Positions 13,699-37,029 of a stretch of DNA of 64,000 bases are shown here, one piece after another. Each line of letters opens with the position of its first letter. The stretch's first letter is position 1. The position numbers were made by a program, and so were the translations under genes. Source of the stretch: an uncultured delta proteobacterium. GTDB taxonomy: Bacteria; Desulfobacterota; Desulfuromonadia; Desulfuromonadales; CAWBQR01. The stretch spans positions 29,455 to 93,454 of the forward strand of contig CAWBQR010000017.1 in NCBI GenBank assembly GCA_963791005.1. The letters run 5' to 3'. The notes under the pieces were generated by a model. It was not told the origin of the DNA, searched no databases, and saw only the letters and a list, made by a program, of their open reading frames with translations.

Positions 13699-13707
13699 TA
13701 TTTGCCT

Positions 13708-15888
13708 TCATGCCTCACCCGTTCTCACCCGATGCTGTTTCTGCCGATAGGACGTATAGTAATCGTATTGGTAGTAGTCGCTTTTTTTGTAATCGAGGGC
13801 GTTTATCACCATCCCGAGCACATGGGCATTGACATCATGCAGCGATTTCAAAGTCTGACCGGAGATGTCAAAGTTTGTCTTATGTGCCCTGGCCACGACA
13901 ATGACGCTGTCGAAAATTCGACTGAGAATACGGGGATCGGCGACGGACAGAACTGGCGGAGAGTCGCAGATGATGATGTCGAAATCTTTCCGCAGCCCTT
14001 CAAGCAAGGTTTTCATCCGGTTAGAACCGAGAAGTTCCGAGGGGTTGGGCGGCATCGGTCCCGAGGTCATCACCGCAAGATTTGCGACGGGGCCTTTTTT
14101 CAGGATATCCTTACCGGCCGAACCCGCCAGATAGACGCTCAATCCGTTTTCATTGTTCATCTTGAAAATCTTGTGGATCCGGGGTTTGCGCAAATCGCCA
14201 TCAATAAGAACAACCTTTTTTTCCGATTGGGCCAGAGCCAGAGCCAGGTTCACCGAGATGGTAGTTTTCCCCTCTCCCATCGCCGGACTGGTGACCAGGA
14301 TGGAGGCGGGGGGAGCGTCTGCCGAGGAGAGCAATATCGAGGTACGAAGAGCCCTGTAGTGTTCGGAAAAAAGAGATTGGGGGTCTTTTAGAAACATTTC
14401 TTCGAGGTCCTGGTCATTCCCCTTGCACAGGGGCACGACCCCCAGAACCGGTATACCGAGGGAAGCCTCGGTCTCTTCAGGGCTCTTCACCGTATTGTCC
14501 AGGTAGTCGAAGAAAAAGGCTAGGCCAATGCCTCCGAACAGACCAAGAAACAGGCCAAGCAGGAGGTTGAGGCCCTTTAAAGGCCTGGCAGGGAACAGGG
14601 GTACCGACGCTTCCTCGACAACCGAGAGATTGACCGGTTGAGTCTCCTGGGTAAGGCTCTGCTCTTTCAACTTGGTGAGCAGGGCATCGTATAGCTGGCG
14701 GCTGGTGTCCACCTCCCGGTTCATGGCATTGTATTGAATGAATTTTTCGTTGAGCCTCTGGGCTTCGTTCTTTGTCCTCTGAAGCTCCGCATGGAGGTTG
14801 TTTTCATTGGCACGCGCCAGCTCGTACTGATTCCGAATGGATTGAATGACCCTGCTAATCGCCTGATTTCTCTTTTGCTTCAGGATCTTCAAGTCTCCGA
14901 GGGCTTTGGTCATCACGGGATGCTTTGGCCCGAACTTGCCGGAGAGTTCCATGATATTTTTTTCGGAATCGATAATCTGACTCCGAAGGGTCTGTACCGA
15001 AGGGTCGTCGGCAACCGCTGCAATAGTCAACGCAACGGAGGGGTCCCTGGCCGCCTGTCTGACCTTTCGGTCCAGGACCTCCAGTTCCTTCCTTTTGGTC
15101 TCAGCCTGAACAAGTTGCGTGCTGACCTCGGATAATTTCCCAGGGGTTATGGTAAGACGATTCTCCAGTGTGACGATGTCATTGGCCTTCCTGTAGGCCT
15201 GGAGGGCATTTTCCGTCTTATCCAGTTTTTTGGCTTCCTCCCCTGCTTTCCTGGTCATCCAGGCCAGGGTCCTTCGGGTGGATTCCATCTTCATGTCAAG
15301 GGTTTCTTCGATATAGGCTTTGGCGGTGGCGTTAGCTACCTGGGCAGCCAACTCAGGATTGGGGGACAGGAAACTTATGGTCACGATATGGCTGTCGTTT
15401 ACGGGGGTGACTGAAATACCCTGGCTGATCGCCTGGGCCGCCAAATCCTCCTTCGACAGGACCTTGGTACCCTTCCCTGCTGCCTGGTTCGGCAGGATAA
15501 AGGCCATTGCTTTCCGTGCTGCGATGGTGAACCTGGACTGAACGGAATGGAGAATGGAGTTTTGTCCGGAACCGGTCAGTTGATCGATTTTGTCCCCGAG
15601 GCCCAGCATATCCACCACTCTGTGCGCAACGGGGGTGCTTTTTATCAACTGGAACTGGGTCGCATAGAATTCAGGGTCATAGCGAGACGAATGGTATGGC
15701 CCCGAAAGGTCGCTTGACTCCACCTTTTCTATGATGACCTTGGTCGTACCCTCGTATTGGGGCGTGGCGAGAAAAGTGCCTACAACCACCACCCCGAATG
15801 TGAGGGCTAAAAACACCACCACGGTCCTTCTGTGCTTTTTTATTACTTTCAGATAATCCCTTAAATGCGTGTACCTTCTCGTATTCAT
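13708..15888 (-). CDS. wzc: Wzc/GumC polysaccharide co-polymerase and tyrosine autokinase
   Basis: Two TMs, coiled periplasmic region, Walker A SPAMGEGKT, DGDLRKP, DSPP, C-terminal Tyr cluster. Confidence 0.95.
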   Translation of the reverse strand: MNTRRYTHLRDYLKVIKKHRRTVVVFLALTFGVVVVGTFLATPQYEGTTKVIIEKVESSDLSGPYHSSRYDPEFYATQFQLIKSTPVAHRVVDMLGLGDKIDQLTGSGQNSILHSVQSRFTIAARKAMAFILPNQAAGKGTKVLSKEDLAAQAISQGISVTPVNDSHIVTISFLSPNPELAAQVANATAKAYIEETLDMKMESTRRTLAWMTRKAGEEAKKLDKTENALQAYRKANDIVTLENRLTITPGKLSEVSTQLVQAETKRKELEVLDRKVRQAARDPSVALTIAAVADDPSVQTLRSQIIDSEKNIMELSGKFGPKHPVMTKALGDLKILKQKRNQAISRVIQSIRNQYELARANENNLHAELQRTKNEAQRLNEKFIQYNAMNREVDTSRQLYDALLTKLKEQSLTQETQPVNLSVVEEASVPLFPARPLKGLNLLLGLFLGLFGGIGLAFFFDYLDNTVKSPEETEASLGIPVLGVVPLCKGNDQDLEEMFLKDPQSLFSEHYRALRTSILLSSADAPPASILVTSPAMGEGKTTISVNLALALAQSEKKVVLIDGDLRKPRIHKIFKMNNENGLSVYLAGSAGKDILKKGPVANLAVMTSGPMPPNPSELLGSNRMKTLLEGLRKDFDIIICDSPPVLSVADPRILSRIFDSVIVVARAHKTNFDISGQTLKSLHDVNAHVLGMVINALDYKKSDYYQYDYYTSYRQKQHRVRTGEA

Positions 15889-15932
15889 AGGCGATCACTT
15901 TTTCAACAAGGGTTGCAAAAAGCCGAACAATG

Positions 15933-16739
15933 TCAGAAGAAGCTTTCCGGGACCACGATTACGTCTTCCGGCAATACCGGATCGTGCATCGAGACATTTT
16001 CCAGGATTTTTTCTTTTCCGTTGATTTTCCTGATGATTTTCACTTTGCCCGGGGCGGCGAGGTTGGTAAAGCCGCCCGCCATGGTGATTGCCTTAATAAC
16101 CGATGAACCGTCCTCCATTTTGTAAGCATCCGGCTTGTTGACCTGGCCGGTCACATAAAACATACCTGCTTTGGCCACAAAGACGTTGTCGCCGTCCATG
16201 ATGGGCATATCGAGAGAGGCATCCCCTTTTTCAAGCAGCTTCTTGAGGTTGATGGGAATGATTTTCTTCTCCGCTCCGGACCCCCTGGGCGCTCTTTTGA
16301 TGATGAGCTTGTCACCCGCATCGACCGTGACCCCTCCGGCTTTGGAAATCAACTCAAGAAGAGTAGTGGGGCCACTTAATTCGTATAGCCCCGGGTTTTT
16401 GATCTGTCCCAGGATGACCACTCTTTTACTCCGAAATTCCTCGATAAAAACCGACACCTGGGGGTTGACAATGTAGCCCTCGGCCAGTTTCCGGCCAATC
16501 TTATCGGCCACCTGGGAAACGGTCATCCCTGAGATTTTGATTTGACCGATGAGGGGGAAAATTATCGTCCCGTCGCTGTTGATCCGGGCTGTGGTTGTCA
16601 GGTCGGGATTGTCGTAAACTGAAATCTTAAGGACATCTCCCTCGCCGGCCAGATACCCGGAGTCATCGGCCGGGGCCGGCCTCGCCACTGCGGAAACGAT
16701 GAAAACCACCACCAAGGAGAAAAAAAACGCTCTTTTCAT
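15933..16739 (-). CDS. wza: Wza-like polysaccharide export protein (Poly_export plus SLBB)
   Basis: GDVLKISVY...DGTIIFPLIGQI and two SLBB repeats (AGG motifs). Confidence 0.9.
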   Translation of the reverse strand: MKRAFFFSLVVVFIVSAVARPAPADDSGYLAGEGDVLKISVYDNPDLTTTARINSDGTIIFPLIGQIKISGMTVSQVADKIGRKLAEGYIVNPQVSVFIEEFRSKRVVILGQIKNPGLYELSGPTTLLELISKAGGVTVDAGDKLIIKRAPRGSGAEKKIIPINLKKLLEKGDASLDMPIMDGDNVFVAKAGMFYVTGQVNKPDAYKMEDGSSVIKAITMAGGFTNLAAPGKVKIIRKINGKEKILENVSMHDPVLPEDVIVVPESFF

Positions 16740-16797
16740 ACTCGACGCTTCCTTTCGGCCTGAGGAAACAGGTCCCTCGGTCGAATGCACATGGTTG

Positions 16798-18141
16798 TCA
16801 TAAGGCGGCGGTAGCGCTCAGGAAAACGTAATTGGTCCGGTAGTCGTACTGATCGAAATTGGAATCTCTCCGTACATACGAATAACCCAGGTTCATATTG
16901 AGCCATCTCCGGAATGCGTATCCAAAGGCGACCCCGGCGCTGTAATAATCATCTTCCCGCTGCCCGGTCAGACCGCCTATCGTGGTCTGACCTTTATAAC
17001 TGTTTCTCCAGAAATAAAAATTCGCGGATCCCATAATCCTGGCGGTGAGTCTCTGGAGATATCGTGCTTCAATTCGATGGGTCAGCATCGACTGGCTGTC
17101 AGCCACGTCCGTTTCATTGGTTCTACGAAAAGCGCGAAGCGACACGGAGGTCTTCGGGGTAAATCGATGATCGAACTGGGCCTCGGCGATGAAATCGTTT
17201 CGGGTCTCGGCGTTTCCGGAAAAGTCCTTTACTCCAAGACCGGCTTTTATCCTGCCACGGGATTTGGCTGTGATCCTCCAGTCTGCTCCAACAAAATAAT
17301 GCTGCTCAGTGCTGTCCTGCAGTGTTTCCTTCCGGTAGTTGATGTCGATATAGTCATATTCGAGAAACGCAGAGGTTTTGGCGCCGACCATATAAAACGC
17401 GTAGAGGGAACCCGAATTGTCGTCGCGCTCACGAAAGGCATTCTGTTGGGAGGAGTAGCTCAAGGTATAGAAGGAATAATCGGCCCTGAGCCTGAGCCTG
17501 GGACCGACTTGATAGGAAACAAGGGCGTTAAGAAGGTTCGAATCGAACTCATCCAGCGTCCTCGAGGTTCCGGTGCCCAGGGGATCGTGGTCCTTTTGAA
17601 AGATATCGATCACCTCAAGGGAAAGCCCTCCGCGAAGGTTGCCTTGAAGGAGTCCCTCAGCCCGCTGATACACGTTGTTTTCGCTGGAAAACCTGCTGTG
17701 CTCCTCAATGTTGGCCCGATACAGGGCATATCCCTGAAAACGCCGGTCGGATACAGTTCGAAAGCGGCTTACTTCAAGCCCCCCGGGAGCCGTATTCCGT
17801 GTAGCAACCTGGAGCATCTGCTGCCTCGTAGCGGGCAAAGCCAGCCAGATGCCAGGGGTGATTACCGTGTAAAGTTCGCTCTCTTCATTGTTCGTATTGA
17901 AGAAGTTATCGGTAAAATATTCAGCTACGGATAAAAAGGGATGGATATGACCTTCCCTGGTGCCAAGCATTTCACTGGTTGCAGTCTTCTGTTCCAGAGG
18001 AAGCGGAATATAGGCTTCGGAAACGTTGGGTGTTGCAATTCCCGCCGGTGCAGCTTCTTCCTGTGCCCACAAGGGATGAAGGGGTTGAGTCAGAAAAAGA
18101 AAAAAAGTTCCCAAGATGAATACAACGGCTCGGGTTTTCAT
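16798..18141 (-). CDS. EPS-associated outer-membrane beta-barrel protein
   Basis: Signal peptide, alternating beta-strand pattern, C-terminal YSYVRRDSN...YDY; lies next to wza. Confidence 0.8.
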   Translation of the reverse strand: MKTRAVVFILGTFFLFLTQPLHPLWAQEEAAPAGIATPNVSEAYIPLPLEQKTATSEMLGTREGHIHPFLSVAEYFTDNFFNTNNEESELYTVITPGIWLALPATRQQMLQVATRNTAPGGLEVSRFRTVSDRRFQGYALYRANIEEHSRFSSENNVYQRAEGLLQGNLRGGLSLEVIDIFQKDHDPLGTGTSRTLDEFDSNLLNALVSYQVGPRLRLRADYSFYTLSYSSQQNAFRERDDNSGSLYAFYMVGAKTSAFLEYDYIDINYRKETLQDSTEQHYFVGADWRITAKSRGRIKAGLGVKDFSGNAETRNDFIAEAQFDHRFTPKTSVSLRAFRRTNETDVADSQSMLTHRIEARYLQRLTARIMGSANFYFWRNSYKGQTTIGGLTGQREDDYYSAGVAFGYAFRRWLNMNLGYSYVRRDSNFDQYDYRTNYVFLSATAAL

Positions 18142-18300
18142 GATTCCACTCCTCATTTCATTTAATGGACGGGCAATGATTTAAATTAAACCACAAAGCG
18201 ACTGCAAGGAATTGAAGCTTCTATATAAAGTCATGCTATCAACTAATCCTGCAATGTCAATTGAGGCCGATAAAAATTAATAAAACCGCCATTTCCCAAC

Positions 18301-20256
18301 TTAAGAACTGCCTGACTCTGCCCGATCCGGGACTATGTCCCCAGTCCTTTTCAGCATACCTGAGGCTGGCTTGAATAAAGGGACCGGGTCCGAAGGTTCG
18401 ATGCGCGGCTGGTATTCGGGAACTATGTCTCTCAGTATTTTGATAATGTCTCTCAGACTTCTTCTCCCTATGGCCCTTTCCAGTTCGTCCACCTTGTTTT
18501 CCAGGATCGCCTTCTCATGGAACTCGGATCGGGCGATTTTTATCTTTTCATGGGTGGTGGACAAAACGCCTTCCCCGGCCAGAAGAAGTTCTTCATAAAG
18601 CTTTTCTCCGGGCCGCAAACCAGTAAAGACAATATCGATATCCTCGTAGGCACGCAGACCCGACAGCCGAATCATCTCTTCGGCCAGATGGAGAATTTTT
18701 ACCGGCTCCCCCATATCCAAAAGGAATATTTCGTTGCCATGCCCCATGCTGCCGGCCTGAAGCACCAATTGCGCCGCTTCGGGAATAGTCATGAAAAAGC
18801 GGGTCACCTCCGGATGGGTAACGGTAACGGGACCGCCTGACTTGATCTGGTTTCGGAAGATGGGAACCACACTTCCGTTGCTGCCCAGAACGTTTCCGAA
18901 GCGAACGGTAACAAAGCTGATGGAAGCTCCGCCGGCGCGGGATTGCACGTAAACTTCGGCAGCCCTTTTGCTCGCTCCCATGACGTTGGTGGGGTTCACA
19001 GCTTTGTCGGTAGACACCATGACGAAATGCCGGGTACCGAAGGATCCGGCGCAATCGGCAAGAGATCTGGTGCCCAGCACGTTGTTCCTTAACGCTTCAA
19101 TCGGATTTTTTTCCGACATAGGAACATGTTTGTAGGCTGCAGCATGAAACACGACTTCAGGTCTGAACCTCGCGAAGACGTCCCTGGTTTCAAAGGCATC
19201 GCGGATATCGTTGAGACAGGTATGAAGCTTGACTTTCGGGAAGCGTTCTCTCAGCTCATTTTCAATATGGAACAAGGGGGTTTCCGCATTATCAAAAAGG
19301 ACGATTTGTTCGGGACAAAAATTGGCCATCTGTCGACAGATTTCGCTCCCGATGCTGCCTGCGGCGCCGGTGACGAGGATGGTCCTTCCGGAGAGATAGT
19401 TTTTGATTCCCTCCAGGTCCAGCCGAACCGGCTTTCTACCCAGGAGGTCCTCCACCTCGACGTTCCTGAGATGCTGAACCGAGACATCCCCGCTGATGAT
19501 ATCGGTCATCGCCGGCAGGATTTTCGACTCAATCCGGGCCTTGTGGCAAATCTCGACGATGTTTCGAAGCTCCCTGGGGCATAGGGCCGGCTGGGCGATT
19601 ATGACCTGGCCGATGAACTTTTCGCGGCAGGTATTTTCCAGCCTATCCGTGCTCCCGAGCACAGGAACGCCCTCAAACCATTGTTTTTGTCTATCCGGGT
19701 CGTTATCCAGAAACCCTGAAACCGTCTGAGTCAAATGGGGACTCTGTCGGATTTCCCGGGCAATGGTCTGCCCCACTGCCCCGGCGCCCACAATCAGAAC
19801 CCGTTGAGCATCGTTTCTTTCCTTTAAATTGAGGGTATAGGCTTCCCGGAGGATTCTGACGATGACTCGAATGCCGCTGGTCATCAGCAGACAAAGGATA
19901 AAGTCAAGAATGATGATTGAACGGGGAAAATGATTCCAATGCTGGAATAAAACGATATAAAGGAGGAACACCCCGGAAGCAAAAATGTTTGCCTTGATGA
20001 TTACCAACAAATCGGGGAGGGAAACATACTTCCACCAGCCTGAAAAAAGTCTCATTCGTAAAAAGACAAGAAATTTTATCAATACCAGCCAGGGCAAAAG
20101 CCCCCATAGTGTTTCCAAATAAATTTCAGGAACACCGCCGTCAAACCTAAGAAAGAAAGCAAGAAAAAAGGCCGAAACAATAGACAAGAGATGGATAGCC
20201 GCCGAAAGAAACTTGCGCTGTATTTTTAATTTGATAATTCGGATTTTTAATTCCAC
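18301..20256 (-). CDS. CapD/PglF/WbpM-type UDP-GlcNAc 4,6-dehydratase
   Basis: Four N-terminal TMs, GAAGSIGSE, HAAAYKHVP, STDKAVNPTNVMGASK, RFGNVLGSNGSV. Confidence 0.95.
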   Translation of the reverse strand: MELKIRIIKLKIQRKFLSAAIHLLSIVSAFFLAFFLRFDGGVPEIYLETLWGLLPWLVLIKFLVFLRMRLFSGWWKYVSLPDLLVIIKANIFASGVFLLYIVLFQHWNHFPRSIIILDFILCLLMTSGIRVIVRILREAYTLNLKERNDAQRVLIVGAGAVGQTIAREIRQSPHLTQTVSGFLDNDPDRQKQWFEGVPVLGSTDRLENTCREKFIGQVIIAQPALCPRELRNIVEICHKARIESKILPAMTDIISGDVSVQHLRNVEVEDLLGRKPVRLDLEGIKNYLSGRTILVTGAAGSIGSEICRQMANFCPEQIVLFDNAETPLFHIENELRERFPKVKLHTCLNDIRDAFETRDVFARFRPEVVFHAAAYKHVPMSEKNPIEALRNNVLGTRSLADCAGSFGTRHFVMVSTDKAVNPTNVMGASKRAAEVYVQSRAGGASISFVTVRFGNVLGSNGSVVPIFRNQIKSGGPVTVTHPEVTRFFMTIPEAAQLVLQAGSMGHGNEIFLLDMGEPVKILHLAEEMIRLSGLRAYEDIDIVFTGLRPGEKLYEELLLAGEGVLSTTHEKIKIARSEFHEKAILENKVDELERAIGRRSLRDIIKILRDIVPEYQPRIEPSDPVPLFKPASGMLKRTGDIVPDRAESGSS

Positions 20257-20595: not shown

Positions 20596-21300
20596 TTAAT
20601 TAAATTCGTGCCGAAGAAGACTGGAGTTTGCCCTAGAGGCGCAAAGAGCGAGTTTGACCCTGTTGGGAACACCGAATTTTTTAAACAGATGATTACAATG
20701 AGACTTGACCGTTTGTTCGCTGACGCAGAGTTGTTGGGCAATGTGTTTATTCGAATAGCCGTCACAAATATAGTGTAGTATTTCTGCTTCTTTCTTGGTA
20801 AGGTTAACAGGATGTTTTTCATCCCCATTATTATAAAGAAGATTTGTAATGGTTTTATGGTCTATCCACAGTTCTCCTGAGTCCAATGCAACTATGGCTT
20901 TTTTGAGAATAGTTGAATCGGAATTGTTCGGCATTATTCCTCCCAACCCCCTGGCAACCATTTCCTGCAAATCGACATAGGAAATACTTAAATCTGGATA
21001 ATCATTGATAAGAAGGATTTTCCCGGCATGTTTTTTATACATGTCTTTAATAATCTTGGCGCAGCAGACATAGTCGGCAACGATCACTTCCTTCCCAAGA
21101 GGCAGAATTGCCTTCAAATCATCTCCCTCACAGGCAATCCCGGCAATTTCAAACTGCTCATCTTCCTCGAGAAGTCTCTTCAGGCTTTCGGCGAAAAGAT
21201 AGACCCGGCAGCAAATATAAAGACGTATAGGGGTCTCTTGAATTCTTTTTTCACCGGGTATGGCGGTGGGCGAACGTGACTGCCCTCTTTTTTCATACAT
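20596..21300 (-). CDS. LuxR/CsgD-type transcriptional regulator with atypical receiver domain
   Basis: C-terminal LTKKEAEIL...GYSNKHIAQQLCVSEQTVKSH HTH; REC-like N-terminus. Confidence 0.9.
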   Translation of the reverse strand: MYEKRGQSRSPTAIPGEKRIQETPIRLYICCRVYLFAESLKRLLEEDEQFEIAGIACEGDDLKAILPLGKEVIVADYVCCAKIIKDMYKKHAGKILLINDYPDLSISYVDLQEMVARGLGGIMPNNSDSTILKKAIVALDSGELWIDHKTITNLLYNNGDEKHPVNLTKKEAEILHYICDGYSNKHIAQQLCVSEQTVKSHCNHLFKKFGVPNRVKLALCASRANSSLLRHEFN

Positions 21301-21399: not shown

Positions 21400-22641
21400 T
21401 TACCGGCTTGCATACTCCAAAACCCTGTTTACGACTTGACCGGTCCAATTCAGGGCATTCTCACTCAGGGTCGGATGCACGAGAAACATCAGACTCGTCT
21501 CTCCCAGCATTTTTGCTACCGGAAGCCGCTTCGCGGGACCGAGTCCGGCTGTGCGAAAAGCTTTTTCCAGATATATTTCGCTGCAACTACCACTGAAGCA
21601 CGGCGCCCCCTCTGAATTGATTGCCTCAATCACCCGATCCCGACTCCAGTTCTTTTTCAAACGTTCAGTCATTAAAAATGCATAATACTTATAATAGGAA
21701 TGCCCGAATTTCTCGGGAGGTTCAGGAACCAGTAAAGCGGGAGATTTCTTAAAGGCCCGGGTTAGAACCCGGGCGTTCCGTCGTCGGAGTTCCAACCACT
21801 GAGGTATTTTCCTGAGAGTCACTCGTCCGATGGCCGCCTGCATTTCTGCCATTCGCCAGTTGGTTCCGAAAGAATCATGAACCCACCGGAAGACCCAGGG
21901 ATGGGGATTGGGGGTAAGGGCCTCGAAGGATTTCCCATGGTCTTTGAAGGCCCAGGCCCTCCTCCAGATTTCTTCGTCATTGGTGACGAGCATCCCTCCC
22001 TCTCCGCCGGTGGTCATAATCTTGTCCTGGCAGAAGGAAAAAGCTGCCGCATGACCCATCGAGCCGACCGGCCTCCCTTTGTAGGTGGCCCCCTGGGCCT
22101 GGGCACAGTCTTCTATGACCTTCAAGCCGTGCTCTTCGGCCAACTCCAGGATAGGGTCCATGTCGCAGGGCCATCCGGCCAGATGTACCGCGATGATTGC
22201 CCTGGTACGCGGTGTAAGAACCCCCCGAAGGGTATCCGCGGTAATATTCTGGCTCAATGGGTCCACGTCCGCAACGACGGGAATGCCGCCGCGCCTGGCG
22301 ACTGCGCTTGCCGAAGCGATGAAAGTTCGACTGGAGGTAACGACTTCGTCTCCCTCCCCGATGCCGAGCGCATACAGTGCCAGCTCGAGGGCCACGGTCC
22401 CGTTGGTCAGGGCCACGGCATAGCGGCAGCCGCAGGAGGATGCGAATTCGGCCTCGAACTGTCGTCCCTCCTGACCGCTCCAGTAATTGAGCCTTCCCGA
22501 TTTCAGAACCGCGACGGCAGCCCCGATTTCCTCGGAACCCAAATGGGGCCAGGGTGCAAAGGATGGCCGCTCGGCCTGCCTGCCGGCCGCGACCCGGGAG
22601 ATGAGGTCCTCGTGGTTGTTGTTGAGAGATCCATTCTTCAT
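21400..22641 (-). CDS. DegT/DnrJ/EryC1/StrS sugar aminotransferase
   Basis: NGTVAL, VHLAG, IEDCAQA and FSFCQDKIMTTGGEGGM motifs. Confidence 0.95.
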   Translation of the reverse strand: MKNGSLNNNHEDLISRVAAGRQAERPSFAPWPHLGSEEIGAAVAVLKSGRLNYWSGQEGRQFEAEFASSCGCRYAVALTNGTVALELALYALGIGEGDEVVTSSRTFIASASAVARRGGIPVVADVDPLSQNITADTLRGVLTPRTRAIIAVHLAGWPCDMDPILELAEEHGLKVIEDCAQAQGATYKGRPVGSMGHAAAFSFCQDKIMTTGGEGGMLVTNDEEIWRRAWAFKDHGKSFEALTPNPHPWVFRWVHDSFGTNWRMAEMQAAIGRVTLRKIPQWLELRRRNARVLTRAFKKSPALLVPEPPEKFGHSYYKYYAFLMTERLKKNWSRDRVIEAINSEGAPCFSGSCSEIYLEKAFRTAGLGPAKRLPVAKMLGETSLMFLVHPTLSENALNWTGQVVNRVLEYASR

Positions 22642-22662: not shown

Positions 22663-23895
22663 TCAGGGGCAATTGTAATAGGCGCCTATCCCCGCACGGC
22701 CGAAATATTGGAAAGCCTCTTTCATCCGCCGGCGAATGATTTTTTCGGGCACCTTTTCAGCGATTTTCACGGACATGGTCCCCGTCTTTTCGTGGTAGGG
22801 AAAAACCACCACGGCATTGAATCCTGAATCCTTCACCAGTTCTAATGTCGAATAAAAGTCCTCCCGGGTCTCCGAAGGAAAGCCTATGATAATCTGTGTT
22901 TCAAAGAGAATGTCCGGATGCCGTCGTTTGATTTTAAGCACGGACTCCTTGACCATCCGGCCGGTATGTTCTCTTTGCATTAATCCCAGAATTCTGTCGC
23001 TTCCGGACTGAACGGGGCAGAGAATGCTTTTAACGCTGTCGAACCTTTCCATCTCGAGGAAGGCGTCAGTGTAATGTATCAGGAATTTCGGATGGATCTC
23101 CTTGATGTGGAAGCGCGTGCCGTCATGAGCCTCCTCATCTGCTTCCGGCCTGGAATCGGCGGCAAAAAGCTCCCGAAGCAAATCCGGGAAGGTACTTTGG
23201 ATGTCCAGACCATAGCAGCCCGGGTCGTCACCGAGGAGGCTGAAATCGTGATACCCCTTCCCGAGCCCCGCCTGGAACTCGCCAAGGATCCGGCCGATGG
23301 GTTTGCTCCTGACAGTACCGACCGAATTCCTTATGGCGCAGTAGCTGCACTTCCCCATGCATCCGCGACAGATAAAAAGGAACCAGCTTTTTGCAGGCTT
23401 GCAAAAGCGTTCTTTCAGGAGTTTTCTTCCCGTGGATTTTAACTGTTCCCACAAGTAATGGTCCAAAACAAGACCCGTTTCCATTTTCCTTTTTACGGAA
23501 GTGAAAAAGCTGCCATCTCTTTTGCCGATCAGGTTGGCTTCGGCAACCTTTTGGTAGGGGACACGGATGCTTCCAAAATGCTCATCGATTGTATGAATTT
23601 CTTTCGGAGCGATTTTAGGAATGTCAAGGAATTCCTTGTATCGTTCGGGAGCGATGTCCGGAAGGCACCCGTAGACAAGGATGTCGACCCCATATTTTTC
23701 GAGGAATCGCAAACGATTTACCGACTCCCGCTCCTCCTTTTCCTTGAAGGCACAGGTACTGACGAGGATCCTGTCTGCGTTTTCCGGCCGGTCAACCAGA
23801 ACGTAGCCGTTCAGTTCCAGATATTTTCTGATGGTCTTTATGTCCAGTTGCCTTCTATTGCAGCCACCCGCTTCAACATAAATTTTTTTATTCAT
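22663..23895 (-). CDS. MiaB/RimO-like radical SAM methylthiotransferase lacking TRAM domain
   Basis: UPF0004 cysteines (GGCNRR, STCAF, YGCLP), CMGKCSYC, PVQSGSDRIL, IIGFPSETREDF; ends before any TRAM domain. Confidence 0.85.
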   Translation of the reverse strand: MNKKIYVEAGGCNRRQLDIKTIRKYLELNGYVLVDRPENADRILVSTCAFKEKEERESVNRLRFLEKYGVDILVYGCLPDIAPERYKEFLDIPKIAPKEIHTIDEHFGSIRVPYQKVAEANLIGKRDGSFFTSVKRKMETGLVLDHYLWEQLKSTGRKLLKERFCKPAKSWFLFICRGCMGKCSYCAIRNSVGTVRSKPIGRILGEFQAGLGKGYHDFSLLGDDPGCYGLDIQSTFPDLLRELFAADSRPEADEEAHDGTRFHIKEIHPKFLIHYTDAFLEMERFDSVKSILCPVQSGSDRILGLMQREHTGRMVKESVLKIKRRHPDILFETQIIIGFPSETREDFYSTLELVKDSGFNAVVVFPYHEKTGTMSVKIAEKVPEKIIRRRMKEAFQYFGRAGIGAYYNCP

Positions 23896-23898: not shown

Positions 23899-24755
23899 TT
23901 ATTCCTCAATATTGGAAGGCTCTTTTTTAAGGCACAACACCCAGTGGTTAGAGAAAAAGCATAAAAATTTAAAGTATTTCTTATTCCCGATTCTTGAAAG
24001 CTGTTCACTTAGCTTTATGGACGTCTTTACTGGCAACAGTTCTTTTCTAAAGAACAAAAAGGGCCCAAAACTTACGTTGTAATTAGCTATTTTTCCAAGG
24101 TTTTGGTTCTTTAATTTTTTATTTAATTTTATAAAATTGTACCTCCTTATGATTTGGACTTTTTTTTGATTCGGTGATTTTATAAATATCTTTATGAATT
24201 TCTTTAATGGCCAAATAATAAGATAAAAGGGATCAAAAAATTTATTGATCATATAAAAATTTGGCGAGGCAACGACGATAACCCCCTTATTTTTGACCAC
24301 TCGAGCAATTTCTGATATGGCTTTATGATCTTCGTTCAGGTAGGAAAGGACGCCTATACATAATACGAGGTCGAAGGATTCATTCAAAAAAGGAAGACGT
24401 TCGATATCCGACTGGACCAAATGAAAGGGTATTTTGACATTTTCTCTTGCTTGAAGAAGCGATCGGTGATTGAGGTCCACCCCTGTCAACCGGGTTCCAT
24501 TAAAATCAAGGGCCCCAAGAATCCCCCCCTGCCCACACCCGCAGTCCAAAACCCTTTTCTCCCCCCCTGCCCTAAGAATTTTCTCACCGACTCGACCACC
24601 AACTCTTTTCTTTTGATCATTTCATAACTGAAAAACCCTCTTGGAAGACCAGGGTCGTAAACTTCAGCCCACCAGGAATATTCCCGGTCGAAAAAGGATA
24701 TGATCCGTTTATTCTGCAGGTCCGCCCCACCACCCGACGGCTCTTCCTTTTTCAT
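23899..24755 (-). CDS. Class I SAM-dependent methyltransferase (frameshift near 24550)
   Basis: LDCGCGQG, DIERLPF..ESFDLV; N-terminus in ORF 24486-24755; homopolymer runs at the junction. Confidence 0.85.
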
Positions 24756-24800: not shown

Positions 24801-25490
24801 TCAACCATTTTGGGAGGTTTCCACCGTTTTCCTGAAATTTTGCCGCTCCTGATCCAAATCGGTTTCAACCGTATCCGGGTCCGGCGCCACCCCCTGCCTT
24901 CTAATCACCTGCATGCATGTTCGCAGAAGAATGGACAGGTCTAAAGATAACGAACGATTCTGAACATACCAGACATCCAGTGCCAGCCTTTGGTCCCAGG
25001 GAAGGTAGTTGCGTCCATGAATTTGAGCCCATCCCGTGATTCCCGGCCTCACGGAATGCCGGAGCCCCTCCCGCTCGGTATAGTACGGCAGATATTTCAT
25101 AAACAGCGGCCTGGGCCCGACCAGGCTCATATCCCCCTTGAGTACGTTGAAAAGCTCCGGCAATTCATCCAGGCTCGAATTGCGCAAGAATCTCCCTAGG
25201 GAGGTCAGGCGTTCCCCGTCGGAAAGAAGCCTCCCGCTCCCATCCGTTTCATTGATCATGGTGCGGAATTTGAGTATGGTAAACGGACGCCCCCTCAGCC
25301 CGGGCCGCACCTGTCGGAACAGGACAGGCGTGCCCATCCGCAACCTTACCAAAAGGGCAACCAGTCCAAGTATCGGCGACAGCAACATTAATGCTGCCGC
25401 CGAAAGGCATGAATCCAGCACTCTCTTAGACCCTTCTCTGCCCAAAACAGATCTTCGTACGACCACGGTCCCAATCTGGTCTCTCGGCAT
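24801..25490 (-). CDS. PglC/WcaJ-type initiating phosphoglycosyltransferase
   Basis: KFRTM, LRNSSLDELPELFNVLKGDMSLVGPRP, RPGITGWAQ. Confidence 0.95.
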   Translation of the reverse strand: MPRDQIGTVVVRRSVLGREGSKRVLDSCLSAAALMLLSPILGLVALLVRLRMGTPVLFRQVRPGLRGRPFTILKFRTMINETDGSGRLLSDGERLTSLGRFLRNSSLDELPELFNVLKGDMSLVGPRPLFMKYLPYYTEREGLRHSVRPGITGWAQIHGRNYLPWDQRLALDVWYVQNRSLSLDLSILLRTCMQVIRRQGVAPDPDTVETDLDQERQNFRKTVETSQNG

Positions 25491-25505: not shown

Positions 25506-26384
25506 CTAGCCCACCTTTCCAACCCATCCGAAAAGCATGCTTCCTCTTCCCAGCATCCTTGAAAGGGTCCAGATGCCGACAAAGGCCATGTTACCGGCCG
25601 ACCGCATGTTGTTGGAAGTCACAAACATCGGGTCGACGGGTGTGGTCGTACCTAGTCGATAAACCCTGAAGCCGACCCTGGAAAAAAGCCGATGCAAGGT
25701 CTTAGGGGTGAAGCCGTGGATATGATGGGGAGGTGGCACCGTCGCAACCGTTGAGCGTTTTGGAACAAATACTCTTCGCACCAGGCTCGGAAAACCATCC
25801 TCGTTCGGGGTCGAAAAAAGAACGACCCCTCCCGGGGCCAGCAGGCGGTCGATTCGGCAGAGGGTTTCGTAAGGATTCGGAAGATGCTCGATAACGTCTC
25901 TCAACCGGATGAAATCAAATTGCTCATCTTCGAGATTGCTTTCCAGCAGAGGAGAACATCGGAGATCGACCTGAAGCTGGTCGATGCCGGCCTTGATCAA
26001 ATCCGGGTCGATGTCGACGCCGATGGCACTCCAGCCAAGCTCGATAGCGGCCCGGACCGATCCCCCGGATCCGCAGCCGACGTCGAGAAACCGAACCGTT
26101 TCAAGAGGTCTCTGCGTCAGACGGCGGATCTCCTCCAGGTTGGCCTGGAGTTGTTTTTTTTCATACGAAATGATATCGGGGGTGATCTTCTGGTGCATGT
26201 ACCGGGTATATTGGAACTCACGGGAAATTTCGGAAAATTCCGGATTGGGTTCGAAAAAAGGTGCGGGATTGACGTAAATCAGTCCGCAGTTCCCGCATTT
26301 CCCAATCGACCAATCTTCAACATTTGAAACGATTTTATAGTCGTTTTCGCCACAAGCATTACACGATATCCATTCTTTTCGCAT
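25506..26384 (-). CDS. Class I SAM methyltransferase with N-terminal Zn-ribbon
   Basis: CNAC...CGNCGL, FLDVGCGSG, DVIEHLPNP. Confidence 0.88.
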   Translation of the reverse strand: MRKEWISCNACGENDYKIVSNVEDWSIGKCGNCGLIYVNPAPFFEPNPEFSEISREFQYTRYMHQKITPDIISYEKKQLQANLEEIRRLTQRPLETVRFLDVGCGSGGSVRAAIELGWSAIGVDIDPDLIKAGIDQLQVDLRCSPLLESNLEDEQFDFIRLRDVIEHLPNPYETLCRIDRLLAPGGVVLFSTPNEDGFPSLVRRVFVPKRSTVATVPPPHHIHGFTPKTLHRLFSRVGFRVYRLGTTTPVDPMFVTSNNMRSAGNMAFVGIWTLSRMLGRGSMLFGWVGKVG

Positions 26385-26448: not shown

Positions 26449-27669
26449 TCAATGATTTGGAATCTTACCCAAACCTTGACCTGTATTACTTCCTAAGCCA
26501 AGGTGGCCTAATGTCTCCCTGCACCCTGCCTTAAAAAGAAAGGATGTTCTTTTAAAAATAGGTCTCGGATCCTTCAAATCAAAAATTGCAAAAACGTGCG
26601 GATTGAAATAGGGCCGAAGGTATTCCCGAACCGAATATTTCTCCTGCTTGAAATACATTGCGCTGTACCCCAAATCCCGGGCGCTGTCGATCCAGTAGAT
26701 ACCTTTCCGATAATCTGAAACGCCGGGGGTATCTCCGTACGCAAGGTGGCGGTAATGAAGCCAGGGAAAATTAATGCCGCAACGCACCGCCAGAAGGGTT
26801 GACAGGTTGTGGCGTCCGTTGACCTCCATCAGTTTGAATACGCCGTTCCGCGGGTCTTTTTTGAACTCGGTGCAGGCATAACCGGAAAACCCCAGAGCCC
26901 GGAGAATTTTCCGCCCCGGTTCAAGAACCTCGGGGATATCCTGGCTGATCACCACCCGTGGCGACCCGAACCACGGAGGAGCGTTCCTGACATGCCTGGC
27001 AGTGAATTCCGCCAGTGGTTTTCCATCCCAGAAATAAGCGTTGTAGTTGACGACCAGATTGTCATCACCCGGGATATATTCCTGAAGCATTACTTCGAGC
27101 CCGTGTTCCCGGGCTTGAACGAACACCTCTTTCATCCGGCCCGGATTGTCCACCTGAAACATCTTCGTCCCGAAACATTGGTAAAACAGGTGGCTCTGGC
27201 AAGGCTTGATCAGGCAGGGAAATTCGATGGTCTTTCCGTACCTTTCAACCTCTTCCAGACTTGCCGGGACGAGTGTCCTGGGAGCCGGTATGCCATGGGC
27301 ATCCGCCAGAGAGTAGGTAAATTTTTTATCAATGAACTTTCGGGTGACATCCCATCCCGTGCAGGCAACGGCATACAGATTCTCGAGTTCCGCGATGTTT
27401 CTGGAGACGGCAACCAGGGTCTCATCCGAAACGGGTATCAGCACTCCGCCTTTGAACTGAACTGAAATCTCCCTGAGCAGTTCCATGAATTCCTTTTCGC
27501 ACCTACCCGGATGAGGGGCCTCAATTGCCCTCACCACATATTTGGAAACATGCGCCATGTCCCTTTCTTCATAATGCACAAGAACTACAGGCACCCCCCT
27601 CTCCCCTAAAGAGCGGACGACTCCCAAGGCCATTGTATGCCCGGACAGGATGATCGCAGGCTTCAGCAT
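26449..27669 (-). CDS. ATP-grasp carboxylate-amine ligase (D-aspartate ligase-like)
   Basis: LGVVRSLG, FPCLIKP, LQEYIPG, EFKKDPRNG..KLMEVNGR. Confidence 0.85.
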   Translation of the reverse strand: MLKPAIILSGHTMALGVVRSLGERGVPVVLVHYEERDMAHVSKYVVRAIEAPHPGRCEKEFMELLREISVQFKGGVLIPVSDETLVAVSRNIAELENLYAVACTGWDVTRKFIDKKFTYSLADAHGIPAPRTLVPASLEEVERYGKTIEFPCLIKPCQSHLFYQCFGTKMFQVDNPGRMKEVFVQAREHGLEVMLQEYIPGDDNLVVNYNAYFWDGKPLAEFTARHVRNAPPWFGSPRVVISQDIPEVLEPGRKILRALGFSGYACTEFKKDPRNGVFKLMEVNGRHNLSTLLAVRCGINFPWLHYRHLAYGDTPGVSDYRKGIYWIDSARDLGYSAMYFKQEKYSVREYLRPYFNPHVFAIFDLKDPRPIFKRTSFLFKAGCRETLGHLGLGSNTGQGLGKIPNH

Positions 27670-27847: not shown

Positions 27848-28906
27848 TCAGGAGAGAGAATTTGTCCTATACAAAGGAAAATAGCCCAAGTATCTAGATT
27901 TCCTATCTAATGTTTCAGTTTTTGATTTAGCCAGATAATCATATTTTTCTTCATCGAATATCATTCGATAAGTATAAAAACTTTTTCTCAAAGGAGAAAA
28001 TCCACACTTAAAATTAAAAAGCGAATCGTTTTCGCCGCCGAACCCTCCACCGAGATGAAGTTTTTTTATTTTTTTTTCAATTCCCCATGAAGTCATAAAA
28101 TCAAAAATAATTTTTGATGGAGCCTTTTTAAGGAATTTCTCTTTTGTTCCGCCAAGATGATATTCAATAATATCAATGGTTTCAGTAAACAATCCCGATG
28201 CAGCAACTTCTCCTGACGGAGAAAACACGGTACATAAATGCAGGGCAGACTTAAGCTGGCTTCTCAAATCCTCGAAATATGAAGTGGGAAAAAAGTAAAA
28301 ATTGTCGGCGTTCAATCTTCTCATGGATTCGTAGTATATTTCCTTGAAATCATTGTAATAATTCCATTCATCCATTTTTACTGTAAACCCCTCTTTATAA
28401 AGTTTCTTTATGTCTCGCTTGTGGTTTTCTCTTAACTGCTTCCAAATTTCATTTTTATTCTGAGTAAGGTTTATGAAAACCGTTTCCCCGTGCTTAACCA
28501 GTACCCCATATTCTTCGAGGATCTCCAACGGCAATGGCAGAAGGGGGTGAAGTCGGATAAAGGCGGAAATCATGTTTCTGGCCCGGCATGTTTCGGCCCA
28601 AGCTTCCAGGAAATCGTTTAATTGTACTAAATTTTTTCCCGGATAAAAAATGGGTGAAGGATATCCGTAGGGGTTTATCAAATCGCGCCAATCATTGGGG
28701 GCGCCAAGTTCCGGGGGAATTTGTCTGACCAGCAGCGGCATAAGGAATTTTTCCCCTTGATCCTCGCAAAAAAAAGCGAGAGGGCCTCCCCCCTCGTGCT
28801 TCCCTGACAAGAGGAGGAATTCGGGACGTTGGTAAATATCATGAGGCGCCGACCTCAACAAATCGGCCCATCGTCCATCTGAGGGTTCGATAAATTCAGC
28901 TCGCAT
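27848..28906 (-). CDS. GNAT/FemAB-like acyl- or aminoacyl-transferase
   Basis: PYGYPSP, FIRLHPLL, YHLGGT, LHLGGG...LFNFKCGF. Confidence 0.8.
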   Translation of the reverse strand: MRAEFIEPSDGRWADLLRSAPHDIYQRPEFLLLSGKHEGGGPLAFFCEDQGEKFLMPLLVRQIPPELGAPNDWRDLINPYGYPSPIFYPGKNLVQLNDFLEAWAETCRARNMISAFIRLHPLLPLPLEILEEYGVLVKHGETVFINLTQNKNEIWKQLRENHKRDIKKLYKEGFTVKMDEWNYYNDFKEIYYESMRRLNADNFYFFPTSYFEDLRSQLKSALHLCTVFSPSGEVAASGLFTETIDIIEYHLGGTKEKFLKKAPSKIIFDFMTSWGIEKKIKKLHLGGGFGGENDSLFNFKCGFSPLRKSFYTYRMIFDEEKYDYLAKSKTETLDRKSRYLGYFPLYRTNSLS

Positions 28907-28917: not shown

Positions 28918-30090
28918 TTATTGCTTTGTTTTTAAAGATTCAACCATATCATCGTTCCCTAAAATCGTCTTTTTCTGGACGAGCCCGAGATTTTTCATGA
29001 TTACCTGATTAACTTTGGTCACCTCATATTTTTCTTCGGCAATTTTTCTGCTTTCCATGCCCATCGGGGGAATCAGAGTGGGGTTGTAAATGAACTTTTC
29101 CATGGCTTCCACAAGTGCCGGGACGTTTTTTACGGGCACCAGAAAACCATTGATCCCCTCCCTGACTGTCTCGCGACAGCCTGGAGCATCCGTGGTAATG
29201 ATGGGCCGGCCCATTGCCATTGCCTCAAGTACCGTACGCGGTGTCCCCTCCCGGTAGGAAGGAAGAACGTAAACCGAAGAATTCGCAATAGCGGGCCTAA
29301 CGTCATCTAACATACCTAGATATTCCACAACTCCTTCCTGCGTCCAACAATCCAAATCTTGCTTTTTAATTGCGGTCGGGTTTCTGTCAATAAATCCGAC
29401 CAGGTAAAATTTGGCCTTATATCCTTTGTTTTTAATGATAGAGGCAGCCTCGATGTATTCAAGAATCCCCTTGTCCTTTATCAAACGGGCAATCAACAAA
29501 AAGGAAATCTCTGTTGGAAAATTTTGGGGATAAAAATATTTGGTATCCACACCAGAACCGTTAATTAATGTTTGATTTATATTTTTATTCGTTATTTTTA
29601 AATCTGAAAATAATTTCAAATCATCCGGGTTTTGAAAGAAGATAATACTATTAAACCGTAGTGCAATTTTGTATAATTTTATTACAAAAATTTTAATTAT
29701 TTTCGTTCTAAAATCTTTACCTATAAAAGAATATCCAAGACCAGTTATAATTGAAGAAACAAAAGGGATATGTGCAATTTTTGCACAAATTGAACCGTAA
29801 ACAACAGGCTTTATTGTATAAAACAAAACCTTATCTGGTTTTAGTTTTTTGAAAATTCCAACAAGAACGCTTAAGTCCTGGATGTCTGTCACTGGATTGA
29901 TTCCAACCCTGTTGAAATTTACCTTGATAGGTTCGACTCCAATATCAATAAGAATTTTTTTAATATATTCAGGAAAACTTGGCGCACAGACGATAACCTC
30001 ATGTCCGTTTTCAACCATCTCCTCCAAAAGCTTACCTCTGAAGGTAACAAGTGACTCCCCAACATTTCCTAAAACCAGAACTCTTCCCAT
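28918..30090 (-). CDS. Glycosyltransferase family 4 (CapM-like)
   Basis: IKPVVYG, FQNPDD, LPSYREGTPRTVLEAMAMG. Confidence 0.92.
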   Translation of the reverse strand: MGRVLVLGNVGESLVTFRGKLLEEMVENGHEVIVCAPSFPEYIKKILIDIGVEPIKVNFNRVGINPVTDIQDLSVLVGIFKKLKPDKVLFYTIKPVVYGSICAKIAHIPFVSSIITGLGYSFIGKDFRTKIIKIFVIKLYKIALRFNSIIFFQNPDDLKLFSDLKITNKNINQTLINGSGVDTKYFYPQNFPTEISFLLIARLIKDKGILEYIEAASIIKNKGYKAKFYLVGFIDRNPTAIKKQDLDCWTQEGVVEYLGMLDDVRPAIANSSVYVLPSYREGTPRTVLEAMAMGRPIITTDAPGCRETVREGINGFLVPVKNVPALVEAMEKFIYNPTLIPPMGMESRKIAEEKYEVTKVNQVIMKNLGLVQKKTILGNDDMVESLKTKQ

Positions 30091-30127
30091 AATCAAAGGC
30101 CCAAAAAGAGTTTACCCGGATAACGGA

Positions 30128-31351
30128 CTACTTATTCGTCCCCTTTATATTCATGAATTTTTCCGTCCGTTCCTTTACGTTTTTGTAAAATTCAACCCGC
30201 CTTTTTTGCAATAATTCGCTTCGGTACCCTTTTGATTTTTCCAAATTCCGAATGCTCATTTGAGCCATTCTGTCTGGGTCGCTCAAAATATCCCGGATTT
30301 TTTTGCCGAGGGAATCCACATCGTCAGGCGGAACCAGATCATCGGCGTCAAGAAGCTCCGGAATCCCACTTGCCGTAGAGCCGATACAGGGCAATCCCCT
30401 GGCCATTGCTTCGATCATGGCCCTCGGCAGCCCCTCGCCCCTGGAAGGCAGAACAAAAAGGTCGGCTTTGTCCAATTGCTCCCTTATCGCCTCCCCCGAA
30501 GGCAATCGGCCCAAAAAACGAATTCTTCCTTCCAGTCCCTTGGATGCCACCCTTTGTTCCAGACCAGGACGAAATTTCCCGTCGCCGATGATGTTTAAGT
30601 GTAGCTCCACGCCTAGGGCGCCGCAAAGAACGACAGAATCTATCAATATGTCGGGAGCCTTATACAATTGATCAAGAGTCCCTACAAAAATTAGATTGTA
30701 TTTTTCTTTTTTATTAAAATTTCTGGGCTTTTCAATATATGCCCCTTGTTTCATCTGAATGCTTGAATAGTGGGTACTGAAAGCACCTACTGACGGAGGA
30801 TAACGTTTTTGCAAGGCAAATTCAGTTACATACGAAACAGCACAAGCTCTGGAACATTGATACTTTAATTTATTTGTAAACATGATTCTGAAAATTGGAC
30901 GCAAAGGGTGTCTTATAGCTCCTGGTCCAAATACGTCATAGGGGTCTGATACGACTTCCATCCCATAGGGAAATTTACTTTTATTAAACTCATCAATAAA
31001 AAGAGACCCTATCTTTCCAGGGGTTCTGGCAATAAAGGAAGAATTCATTTTCTGTTTCAAAAAAACGGATCGTACCTTTTTTTTAATCTCAATTGATTTT
31101 TTCAAGTATTGCGTTGGTCCGTGGTAATAAGGGAGCGAAACAAAAAACACCCCCTCACCTGTAACTGGACTCATTGCCTGCTTTATGTCTGGAATATTCT
31201 TATCTTGAAGTCTACCAACAACTATTACTCTATCAAATGCGTCTAGATATTTTTTGAAATAGTTGTATCCTGCTCCATGTTCATTATTTGTAACTACATT
31301 TCCATAAGAGTCCAATATAAACCGTGTCTCAGAAGTTAGAACAAGATTCAT
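30128..31351 (-). CDS. Glycosyltransferase family 4
   Basis: FVLPSRGEGLPRAMIEAMARG (EX7E motif). Confidence 0.9.
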   Translation of the reverse strand: MNLVLTSETRFILDSYGNVVTNNEHGAGYNYFKKYLDAFDRVIVVGRLQDKNIPDIKQAMSPVTGEGVFFVSLPYYHGPTQYLKKSIEIKKKVRSVFLKQKMNSSFIARTPGKIGSLFIDEFNKSKFPYGMEVVSDPYDVFGPGAIRHPLRPIFRIMFTNKLKYQCSRACAVSYVTEFALQKRYPPSVGAFSTHYSSIQMKQGAYIEKPRNFNKKEKYNLIFVGTLDQLYKAPDILIDSVVLCGALGVELHLNIIGDGKFRPGLEQRVASKGLEGRIRFLGRLPSGEAIREQLDKADLFVLPSRGEGLPRAMIEAMARGLPCIGSTASGIPELLDADDLVPPDDVDSLGKKIRDILSDPDRMAQMSIRNLEKSKGYRSELLQKRRVEFYKNVKERTEKFMNIKGTNK

Positions 31352-31361
31352 ATTAATTCTC

Positions 31362-32798: not shown

Positions 32799-32813
32799 TT
32801 GGGAACTCCATTA

Positions 32814-33947: not shown

Positions 33948-33961
33948 TTTTGGATATTTCC

Positions 33962-36991: not shown

Positions 36992-37029
36992 AAAAAAATG
37001 AGGCTTCCACCTTGCGGTGGAAGCCTCAT
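36992..37029 (-). terminator. Intrinsic terminator after the Ig/PL9 gene
   Basis: 14-bp stem ATGAGGCTTCCACC-GCAA-GGTGGAAGCCTCAT plus T-run. Confidence 0.85.

Follow-up and report, generated by a model that had tools for sequence, protein, structure and literature searches.

The locus described here raises the question of what an enzyme built like a tRNA methylthiotransferase does in the middle of a gene cluster for an exopolysaccharide (EPS). It lies in a window of 64,000 nucleotides (the whole stretch of DNA that was analysed) from contig CAWBQR010000017.1 of an uncultured member of the Desulfuromonadales. The gene in question is the open reading frame (ORF) at 22663-23895 on the minus strand, which we could confirm as real and which codes for a methylthiotransferase-like radical S-adenosylmethionine (SAM) enzyme of 410 aa with UPF0004 and radical SAM core domains and without a TRAM domain. 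From its domain architecture, cluster cysteines, fold, separate clade and conserved neighbourhood we see an even chance that it is a radical SAM enzyme with two [4Fe-4S] clusters from an uncharacterised TRAM-less sister group of the methylthiotransferases, which would tailor the repeat unit of the EPS and not a tRNA or a ribosomal protein. That it belongs to a glycan pathway and does not act on RNA is probable, and that its chemistry is a transfer of sulfur or of a methylthio group might hold or fail with about the same likelihood. According to the best reading, sulfur or a methylthio group would be inserted into an appendage that is amide-linked to an amino sugar, or into the free precursor of this appendage.

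Four clades of methylthiotransferases are described in PMC2952846, all consisting of three domains and targeting tRNA A37 or S12, and the known substrates given there and in PMC10702137 are adenosine 37 of tRNA and one aspartate of ribosomal protein S12. A study from 2023 reports tRNA as the actual substrate of an archaeal enzyme that had been a candidate for the synthesis of methylthio-F430, and the methylthiolated biomolecules listed in it are only tRNA, S12 and F430 (PMC10702137). The enzyme making methylthio-F430 has not yet been identified, and according to a paper from 2026 (PMC13389010) no enzyme has been linked so far to the transfer of methylthio groups to small metabolites by gut bacteria. 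Our literature search, with supplementary files outside its scope, returned no paper that deals with methylthiotransferases lacking TRAM or with their occurrence in polysaccharide loci.

In a Pfam scan of the protein, a check first suggested in a preliminary description of this DNA, UPF0004 (PF00919) was found at residues 4-88 (1.2e-14) and Radical_SAM (PF04055) at residues 175-354 (1e-15), TRAM (PF01938) was not found at E values up to 1, and the B12-binding domain PF02310, a mark of class B radical SAM enzymes, was not matched, the N-terminus being UPF0004. The translation contains the three UPF0004 cysteines in EAGGCNRR (C12), VSTCAF (C48) and VYGCLP (C77), the radical SAM motif CxxxCxxC as CMGKCSYC (C179, C183 and C186) and the core motifs QSGSDRIL and GFPSETREDF, which means that each motif named in the preliminary description (GGC, STC, YGC, CxxxCxxC, QSGSDRIL and GFPSET..DF) was recovered. 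It had also claimed that the protein ends before the TRAM domain, and the NCBIfam and PDB-profile matches indeed stop short of it. Among the NCBIfam models the nearest one is TIGR00089 (MiaB/RimO) with 213.4 bits versus a cut-off of 251 and a match that stops at profile position 354 of 429. All four equivalog models reach 152-186 bits versus cut-offs of 315-357, the best specific match being the e-MtaB model TIGR01578 (185.5 bits, cut-off 314.7), followed by TIGR01125 for RimO (164 bits, cut-off 357), TIGR01574 (152.7 bits, cut-off 355) and TIGR01579 (151.9 bits, cut-off 357). TIGR04013 and TIGR04014 reach 54-59 bits and cover the radical SAM core only, and no NCBIfam model names a TRAM-less family.

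Such a family does exist. A search covering 5.8 billion proteins gave 1202 hits, and the architecture was read on the best 120 of them (339-447 aa, 40-58% identity, E up to 7e-100). PF04055 together with PF00919 was found in 119 of these 120 and PF04055 alone in the remaining one, and PF01938 was found in none of the 120. In their sources the homologs are named merely 'radical SAM protein' or carry automatic labels of tRNA enzymes, and the nearest ESM Atlas clusters likewise show UPF0004 and Radical_SAM without TRAM. The six cysteines C12, C48, C77, C179, C183 and C186 are found without exception in all 26 aligned homologs, and since the C-terminus AYYNCP, directly before the stop codon, fits the consensus AYYxCP common to the 26 aligned sequences, the enzyme is not cut short. 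It is a member of a populated, uniformly TRAM-less family and not a truncated tRNA enzyme. Further conserved cysteines outside the six cluster ligands are C227 (GDDPGCYG), C293 (LCPxQSGS, conserved to 90% or more) and the penultimate C409.

Two trivial explanations for the missing domain were ruled out. A truncated pseudogene does not agree with the best 120 homologs listed, which show the same architecture, and a TRAM domain hidden by a frameshift at the 3' end is contradicted by the C-terminus conserved across the family and by the distance to the next gene. The stop of the enzyme gene (22663) is separated by 21 nt from the start of the DegT gene (22641), leaving no space for a TRAM domain of 60-70 aa in another frame. 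On the other side its ATG (23895) lies 3 nt from the stop (23899) of the upstream methyltransferase ORF, and both spacings agree with those given before.

In order to place the enzyme among the known methylthiotransferases we reconstructed phylogenetic trees, an analysis that had also been proposed in the preliminary description. Included were MiaB, RimO and MtaB (eight each) from genomes of the same order, five e-MtaB and one e-MtaB-like paralog from archaeal genomes, and, out of 74 clustered family ORFs of the window and 70 public loci, the 65 with a length of 380-450 aa, the nine others being dropped. In a quick tree of these 95 rows the canonical enzymes stand behind one branch of length 0.73 with a support of 99 in the Shimodaira-Hasegawa-like approximate likelihood ratio test (SH-aLRT), and every TRAM-less row is on the opposite side; L077, which groups with the canonical enzymes, is the same gene as the e-MtaB-like L108. 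The query is found in a clade of 18 rows (support 99). A careful tree of 48 rows, chosen to span the clades, separates 30 TRAM-less from 18 canonical sequences at 100/100 and in 100% of 200 bootstrap trees. The tree is unrooted, and 'sister group' is thus used here for the split and not for an order of events. The TRAM-less proteins lie outside the MiaB, RimO, MtaB and e-MtaB clades, and the enzyme is accordingly placed outside the known tRNA methylthiotransferases. Its own clade mixes Bacteroidota, Actinomycetota, Latescibacterota, Pseudomonadota, Nitrospirota, Geobacteraceae, Lentisphaerota, Ignavibacteriota, Chlorobiota and one archaeon, a taxonomy which would fit horizontal movement.

The clade separation at 100/100 is also the first argument in judging whether the enzyme might still be a methylthiotransferase for tRNA or a ribosomal protein that works independently of TRAM, for example via a partner protein. 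In favour of this stands the homologous core, and also that neither MiaB nor RimO was detected in the window's own genome (65% complete), in which the only MtaB-like gene, at the start of contig C18, is split over three frames. The most plausible reason for the absence of MiaB and RimO is that a third of the genome is missing. Among 15 genomes of the same order, MiaB was found over the cut-off in 15, RimO in 14 (the missing one is under the cut-off and appears split) and MtaB in 15, and none of these 15 genomes, which thus keep the canonical enzymes, contains an enzyme-like copy. Archaeal genomes with TRAM-less copies likewise keep the canonical e-MtaB in five of five cases, two of them holding about four or five TRAM-less paralogs. 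Together with the position of our gene in a variable glycan cassette of low guanine-cytosine (GC) content, these data leave hardly any probability for a role in RNA or ribosome modification. In the two archaea with many paralogs (G017, contig C3, 10011-13649, and G016, on several contigs) the four or five TRAM-less copies, three of them in tandem, occur beside one e-MtaB. At the beginning of contig C18 of the window's genome (L002; G000, bases 1-3564) both the MtaB-like gene and an adjoining MnmA-like gene are broken over several frames, which makes local assembly errors plausible in this genome.

The fold leads back to the methylthiotransferases. The AlphaFold2 (AF2) model of the enzyme has a mean predicted local distance difference test score (pLDDT) of 87.4 with low confidence at residues 126-167 and 251-257, and its top matches are MtaB (9a6d), MiaB (7mjz and 7mjw) and RimO (4jc0) with E values from 1e-26 to 3e-24 and template modelling (TM) scores of about 0.7. 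MiaB, MtaB and e-MtaB/CDKAL1, acting on C2 of tRNA A37 (PDB 7mjv-7mjz, 9a6d), have the same two-cluster architecture, and MiaB and MtaB are the best fold matches (E about 1e-26, TM about 0.72); unlike all of them our enzyme is TRAM-less, scores far under the cut-offs and stands outside their clades, and e-MtaB co-exists with TRAM-less copies in the archaeal genomes. A family profile made from the 26 homologs and run against the PDB sequences matched RimO best (3.6e-51), with MiaB at 2.5e-48, and the match ends at residue 352 of 438 in RimO and at residue 379 of 457 in MiaB, just ahead of their TRAM domains. RimO, the uS12 Asp beta-methylthiotransferase (fold match 3e-24), shows the same layout of three UPF0004 cysteines and radical SAM CxxxCxxC and has the core motifs QxGS..IL..M.R and GFPxETxEDF in common with the enzyme. 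It is the sole characterised member that acts on an amino-acid side chain, the chemistry we propose here. In contrast to RimO, the enzyme has no TRAM domain, forms part of a separate clade, stays at less than half of the RimO score cut-off and is encoded in a glycan locus and not in a housekeeping context. Its interdomain linker is about 35 residues longer than that of RimO and coincides with the low-confidence helices of the model, and this longer linker might replace TRAM as a lid over the substrate. The enzyme is thus methylthiotransferase-like but differs from the characterised enzymes in TRAM, score and clade, and its class of substrate would be new.

Behind the methylthiotransferases the next folds are MgmA (9ccb, 2e-17), TsrM and AprD4 (6fd2, 1e-12), then OxsB, TokK and CysS. 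AprD4, TsrM, MgmA, TokK and OxsB, which have a flavodoxin-like N-terminal domain, resemble the enzyme in their overall two-domain fold (E 2e-17 to 1e-9) and share with our proposal a non-RNA substrate and the context of a biosynthetic cluster; by their entry titles MgmA, TsrM, OxsB and TokK are cobalamin enzymes, and none of the listed set is filed as a methylthiotransferase. An alternative would be a different function, in which the same fold would perform no sulfur transfer and instead a C-methylation, epimerisation, dehydration or C-C bond formation on the sugar or its appendage, with the N-terminal cluster serving in substrate binding or electron transfer. Such enzymes modify sugars or side chains with a similar N-terminal domain (MgmA, TsrM, and AprD4 on paromamine), our enzyme stays under the TIGR00089 cut-off and outside the four characterised clades, and a separate SAM methyltransferase nearly always adjoins it, which a self-sufficient methylthiotransferase would not need. 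We nevertheless regard this as fairly unlikely, as the N-terminus is UPF0004 and not a B12-binding domain, the three auxiliary-cluster cysteines that set the enzyme apart from the cobalamin set are invariant in 26 of 26 sequences, and the core motifs of methylthiotransferase type align with RimO and MiaB. Moreover, the characterised enzymes that combine UPF0004 with radical SAM are all methylthiotransferases in the accounts of PMC2952846 and PMC10702137.

The neighbourhood of the gene was described from the beginning as an EPS operon, and we could confirm that it is a complete Wzx/Wzy locus, with all genes between 39592 and 12993 on the minus strand, and that it includes Bac_transf, Polysacc_synt (Wzx), O-ag_pol_Wzy, Wzz/GNVR/AAA_31 (Wzc) and Poly_export (Wza). 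To see whether this context recurs, as a neighbourhood analysis had been proposed for the homologs as well, 70 public loci were divided into three context groups that were set by identity to the query and by tree clade and not by context. Just one of the 70, L055 of Paenibacillus piscarius P121, belongs to an isolate, and its copy is a distant one with 28% identity. The close group (37% identity or more) comprises 21 loci including the window, and genes were counted with hidden Markov models (HMMs) in six frames. A core glycan gene is present within 8 kb in 16 of the 21 loci and DegT within the same distance in 13, a FemAB-like gene within 4 kb in 11, and an ATP-grasp homolog within 3 kb in 12, to which L016 adds a thirteenth. 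A class I methyltransferase was detected within 1.5 kb in 14 loci by HMM, and L018 (by tblastn) and L012 (by Pfam) raise this number to 16/21. The locus of L010, a metagenome-assembled genome (MAG) of the Desulfuromonadales, is almost the same as that of the window. In the Bacteroidales clade (13 loci, 31-33% identity) the enzyme belongs to a polysaccharide locus in 13/13 cases, mostly between a flippase and a pyruvyl transferase, and the full-length loci contain GT2, GT4, GT4, a sulfotransferase, a glycosyltransferase (GT), the flippase, the enzyme, the pyruvyl transferase and a SPASM radical SAM enzyme. Among the other 37 loci, from Bacteriovoracaceae, archaea and further groups, at least 17 show a core glycan marker within 8 kb and at least 23 show B12 or SPASM radical SAM genes within 6 kb. 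Glycan context thus recurs independently in 16/21 close and 13/13 Bacteroidales loci.

Two of these neighbourhoods deserve mention on their own. In L009, a Bacteroidetes MAG, the enzyme gene is duplicated in tandem (positions 1-7000, 54% identity to the query), and genes for a methyltransferase, a carbamoyltransferase and DegT come after the two copies. The dense clusters of L041-L073 (Bacteriovoracaceae and related) combine two TRAM-less enzymes with radical SAM enzymes of the B12-binding and SPASM types, GT2, GT4 and GT9 transferases, a cupin/JmjC protein and a fatty-acid hydroxylase, and are a separate tailoring system.

The recurring glycan context also has to be weighed against the idea that the enzyme and its adjacent methyltransferase serve a small metabolite unrelated to glycans and that the position next to polysaccharide genes is secondary or coincidental. 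This would agree with the five close loci lacking glycan neighbours, where the methyltransferase is the only conserved neighbour in L012, L026 and L030 and where L015 and L017 have none; a small accessory protein common to these five loci was looked for and none was found. The 16 close and 13 Bacteroidales glycan loci speak against it, as does the position of our gene within a tightly spaced block on the same strand between DegT and the initiating transferase, and we assign only a low probability to such a coincidence.

Assuming an EPS tailoring enzyme, the nature of the substrate can be approached by comparing what varies and what stays among the close glycan loci. A PglF-like dehydratase is present in the window, L010 and L011, and L014, L016 and L018-L023 have GFO/IDH/MocA, hexapeptide acetyltransferase, DegT and uridine diphosphate (UDP)-sugar dehydrogenase genes, which we take to be a pathway of the WbpA/B/D/E type. 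The ligase, methyltransferase and radical SAM genes persist while the sugar pathway varies, and for this reason we place the substrate on an appendage and not on a particular sugar. The ATP-grasp carboxylate-amine ligase of the window (26449-27669) fits such a role. Its AF2 model (pLDDT 89.9) is closest in fold to biotin carboxylases and L-amino acid ligases, the fold search giving generic ATP-grasp matches with the L-amino acid ligases 3vot and 4wd3 among the top five and pointing to no specific substrate, and a PDB sequence search with the ATP-grasp protein returned generic or no matches. In the Atlas clusters its relatives are labelled carboxylate-amine ligases, and two structural-neighbour clusters are fusions, one to Methyltransf_11 and the other to a polysaccharide deacetylase. 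A direct link to the enzyme is seen in P0121, a metagenomic protein of 813 aa that came from a search for longer relatives. Its N-terminal half shares 47% identity with the ligase of the window over 379 residues, its C-terminal half shares 45% with the radical SAM enzyme, and it thus looks like a natural fusion of the two. A complex prediction for the enzyme and the ligase gave a score of 0.00 and, being run without controls, counts neither way. P0122 (724 aa) is extended at its N-terminus by about 310 residues, which are unassigned.

The preliminary description had left the choice between a nucleoside diphosphate (NDP)-sugar, a lipid-linked repeat unit and an amino-acid appendage, and the ligase, the FemAB-like protein and the fusion favour an amino-acid or acyl appendage. 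That the sugar itself, as NDP-sugar or lipid-linked unit, is methylthiolated or thiolated would be in line with the gene being 21 nt upstream of DegT in a nucleotide-sugar block, and with the Bacteroidales and Bacteriovoracaceae-type loci, which have no ATP-grasp gene within 3 kb and a FemAB-like gene in 1/50 and carry glycosyltransferases, a flippase, and pyruvyl and sulfo transferases. As the ligase accompanies the enzyme in 13/21 close loci, once even in a fused form, and stays constant together with the methyltransferase and radical SAM genes when the sugar pathway changes, we consider a modification of the sugar itself decidedly unlikely.

For the appendage we infer the following substrate and order of steps. 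The PglF-like dehydratase and the DegT aminotransferase would form a UDP-4-amino-4,6-dideoxy-N-acetylhexosamine (HexNAc), to whose amine the ATP-grasp ligase, possibly with the FemAB-like protein, would link an amino-acid-like or acyl group as an amide. The radical SAM enzyme would then abstract a hydrogen from an unactivated carbon of this appendage or of its free precursor, and the auxiliary cluster would donate sulfur, most likely as a methylthio group, as RimO does with the aspartate side chain. Further methyl groups might be added by the two class I methyltransferases. No hexapeptide acetyltransferase was detected among the 20 ORFs scanned in the locus of the window, and another activity may therefore acylate the amine that DegT provides. 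A bolder version, which we put forward tentatively and with more doubt than confidence, is that the TRAM-less proteins form a fifth, substrate-diverse class of methylthiotransferases for small molecules, the member described here working with the ligase to place a methylthio or thiol group on the amino-acid-like appendage of an amino sugar.

Several points weigh against a methylthiolated EPS appendage. The product has no precedent, as a review on nuclear magnetic resonance (NMR) of glycans names just the mycobacterial 5-methylthio-xylofuranose as a methylthio sugar, with its S-CH3 signal given near 2.1/17 ppm (PMC9912281), and the two lines from which sulfur transfer may be read are the conserved auxiliary-cluster cysteines and the fold. 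The five of 21 close loci without recognisable glycan neighbours (L012, L015, L017, L026 and L030) contain genes for TrkH, a metallo-beta-lactamase-fold protein, an MFS transporter, RmuC, AhpC and a PAS histidine kinase. A divergent polysaccharide deacetylase is encoded close to the enzyme in L030. The enzyme can thus also occur outside glycan loci, either together with its methyltransferase or alone. In the distant clades the partners (pyruvyl transferase, sulfotransferases, B12/SPASM radical SAM enzymes) fit no single substrate, and the neighbour HMMs were built from the same loci, making the counts outside the close group lower bounds. The fusion P0121 is a single sequence on one contig and could be an artefact of gene calling or a frameshift. 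Finally, the adjoining methyltransferase gene announced in the preliminary description is present 3 nt away and is itself split. This class I SAM methyltransferase (23899-24755; Methyltransf_11, weakly similar to the DVU_1556 family) is frameshifted in a G-run near 24501-24570 into the pieces 24486-24755 and 23899-24549, and its clustered homologs are read in a single frame (median 289 aa, range 246-347). The frameshift could be an error of the assembly, or it could be real and reflect inactivation or a phase switch, and thus the pathway may be impaired here or the assembly may be wrong.

If the bolder version of the proposal is right, this would be the first polysaccharide decorated through radical SAM methylthiolation, and sulfur-bearing glycan substituents would be spread over many uncultured phyla and archaea. 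A TRAM-less sister group in glycan-tailoring cassettes would extend methylthiotransferase chemistry to sugars or their appendages and would predict sulfur-containing substituents of surface polysaccharides that are unrecorded in structural surveys. With the ligase, the methyltransferase and the radical SAM enzyme there is a defined gene set with which this could be tested.

Read from 39592 downwards, the locus consists of genes for a Big_7/Calx-beta/beta-helix protein, a PelN-like beta-helix protein, Wzx, GT4, Wzy, GT4, GT4, the FemAB-like protein, the ATP-grasp ligase, a methyltransferase, Bac_transf, another methyltransferase, the radical SAM enzyme, DegT, a LuxR-type regulator, a PglF/CapD-like dehydratase, an EpsL-like barrel, Wza, Wzc and CpsB. 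The Wzx flippase, the Wzy polymerase and the three GT4 glycosyltransferases occupy 28918-35314, followed by the FemAB-like/Acetyltransf_6 protein (27848-28906, weak matches), the second class I SAM methyltransferase (25506-26384, Methyltransf_23) and the small initiating phosphoglycosyl transferase of Bac_transf type (24801-25490). Below the enzyme gene are the DegT/DnrJ/EryC1 sugar aminotransferase (21400-22641; PseC/LegC-like, below the equivalog cut-offs), a LuxR/GerE-type regulator (20596-21300, weakly EpsA-like) and the membrane-anchored UDP-HexNAc 4,6-dehydratase (18301-20256; Polysacc_synt_2, PglF/CapD/PseB-like). The export block at 12993-18156 comprises the CpsB phosphatase, the Wzc tyrosine kinase/co-polymerase, Wza and the EpsL-like outer-membrane barrel. 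PDB sequence searches with the FemAB-like protein, the methyltransferase and a 321 aa cassette protein of unknown function gave generic or no matches.

A search of sequencing runs returned three DNA runs from soil and sediment metagenomes with shares of 0.25, 0.22 and 0.11 and no RNA run among the matches listed, a result with no bearing on habitat or expression. The GC content is 40-53% between 20 and 36 kb versus 53-66% in the flanks, and this low-GC region fits a variable glycan cassette that was probably acquired horizontally. At the head of the locus (35527-39592, minus strand) are the genes of an 846 aa protein with three Big_7 domains, Calx-beta and a beta-helix and of the 426 aa PelN-like beta-helix protein, both of which may be secreted and bind or cleave polysaccharide.

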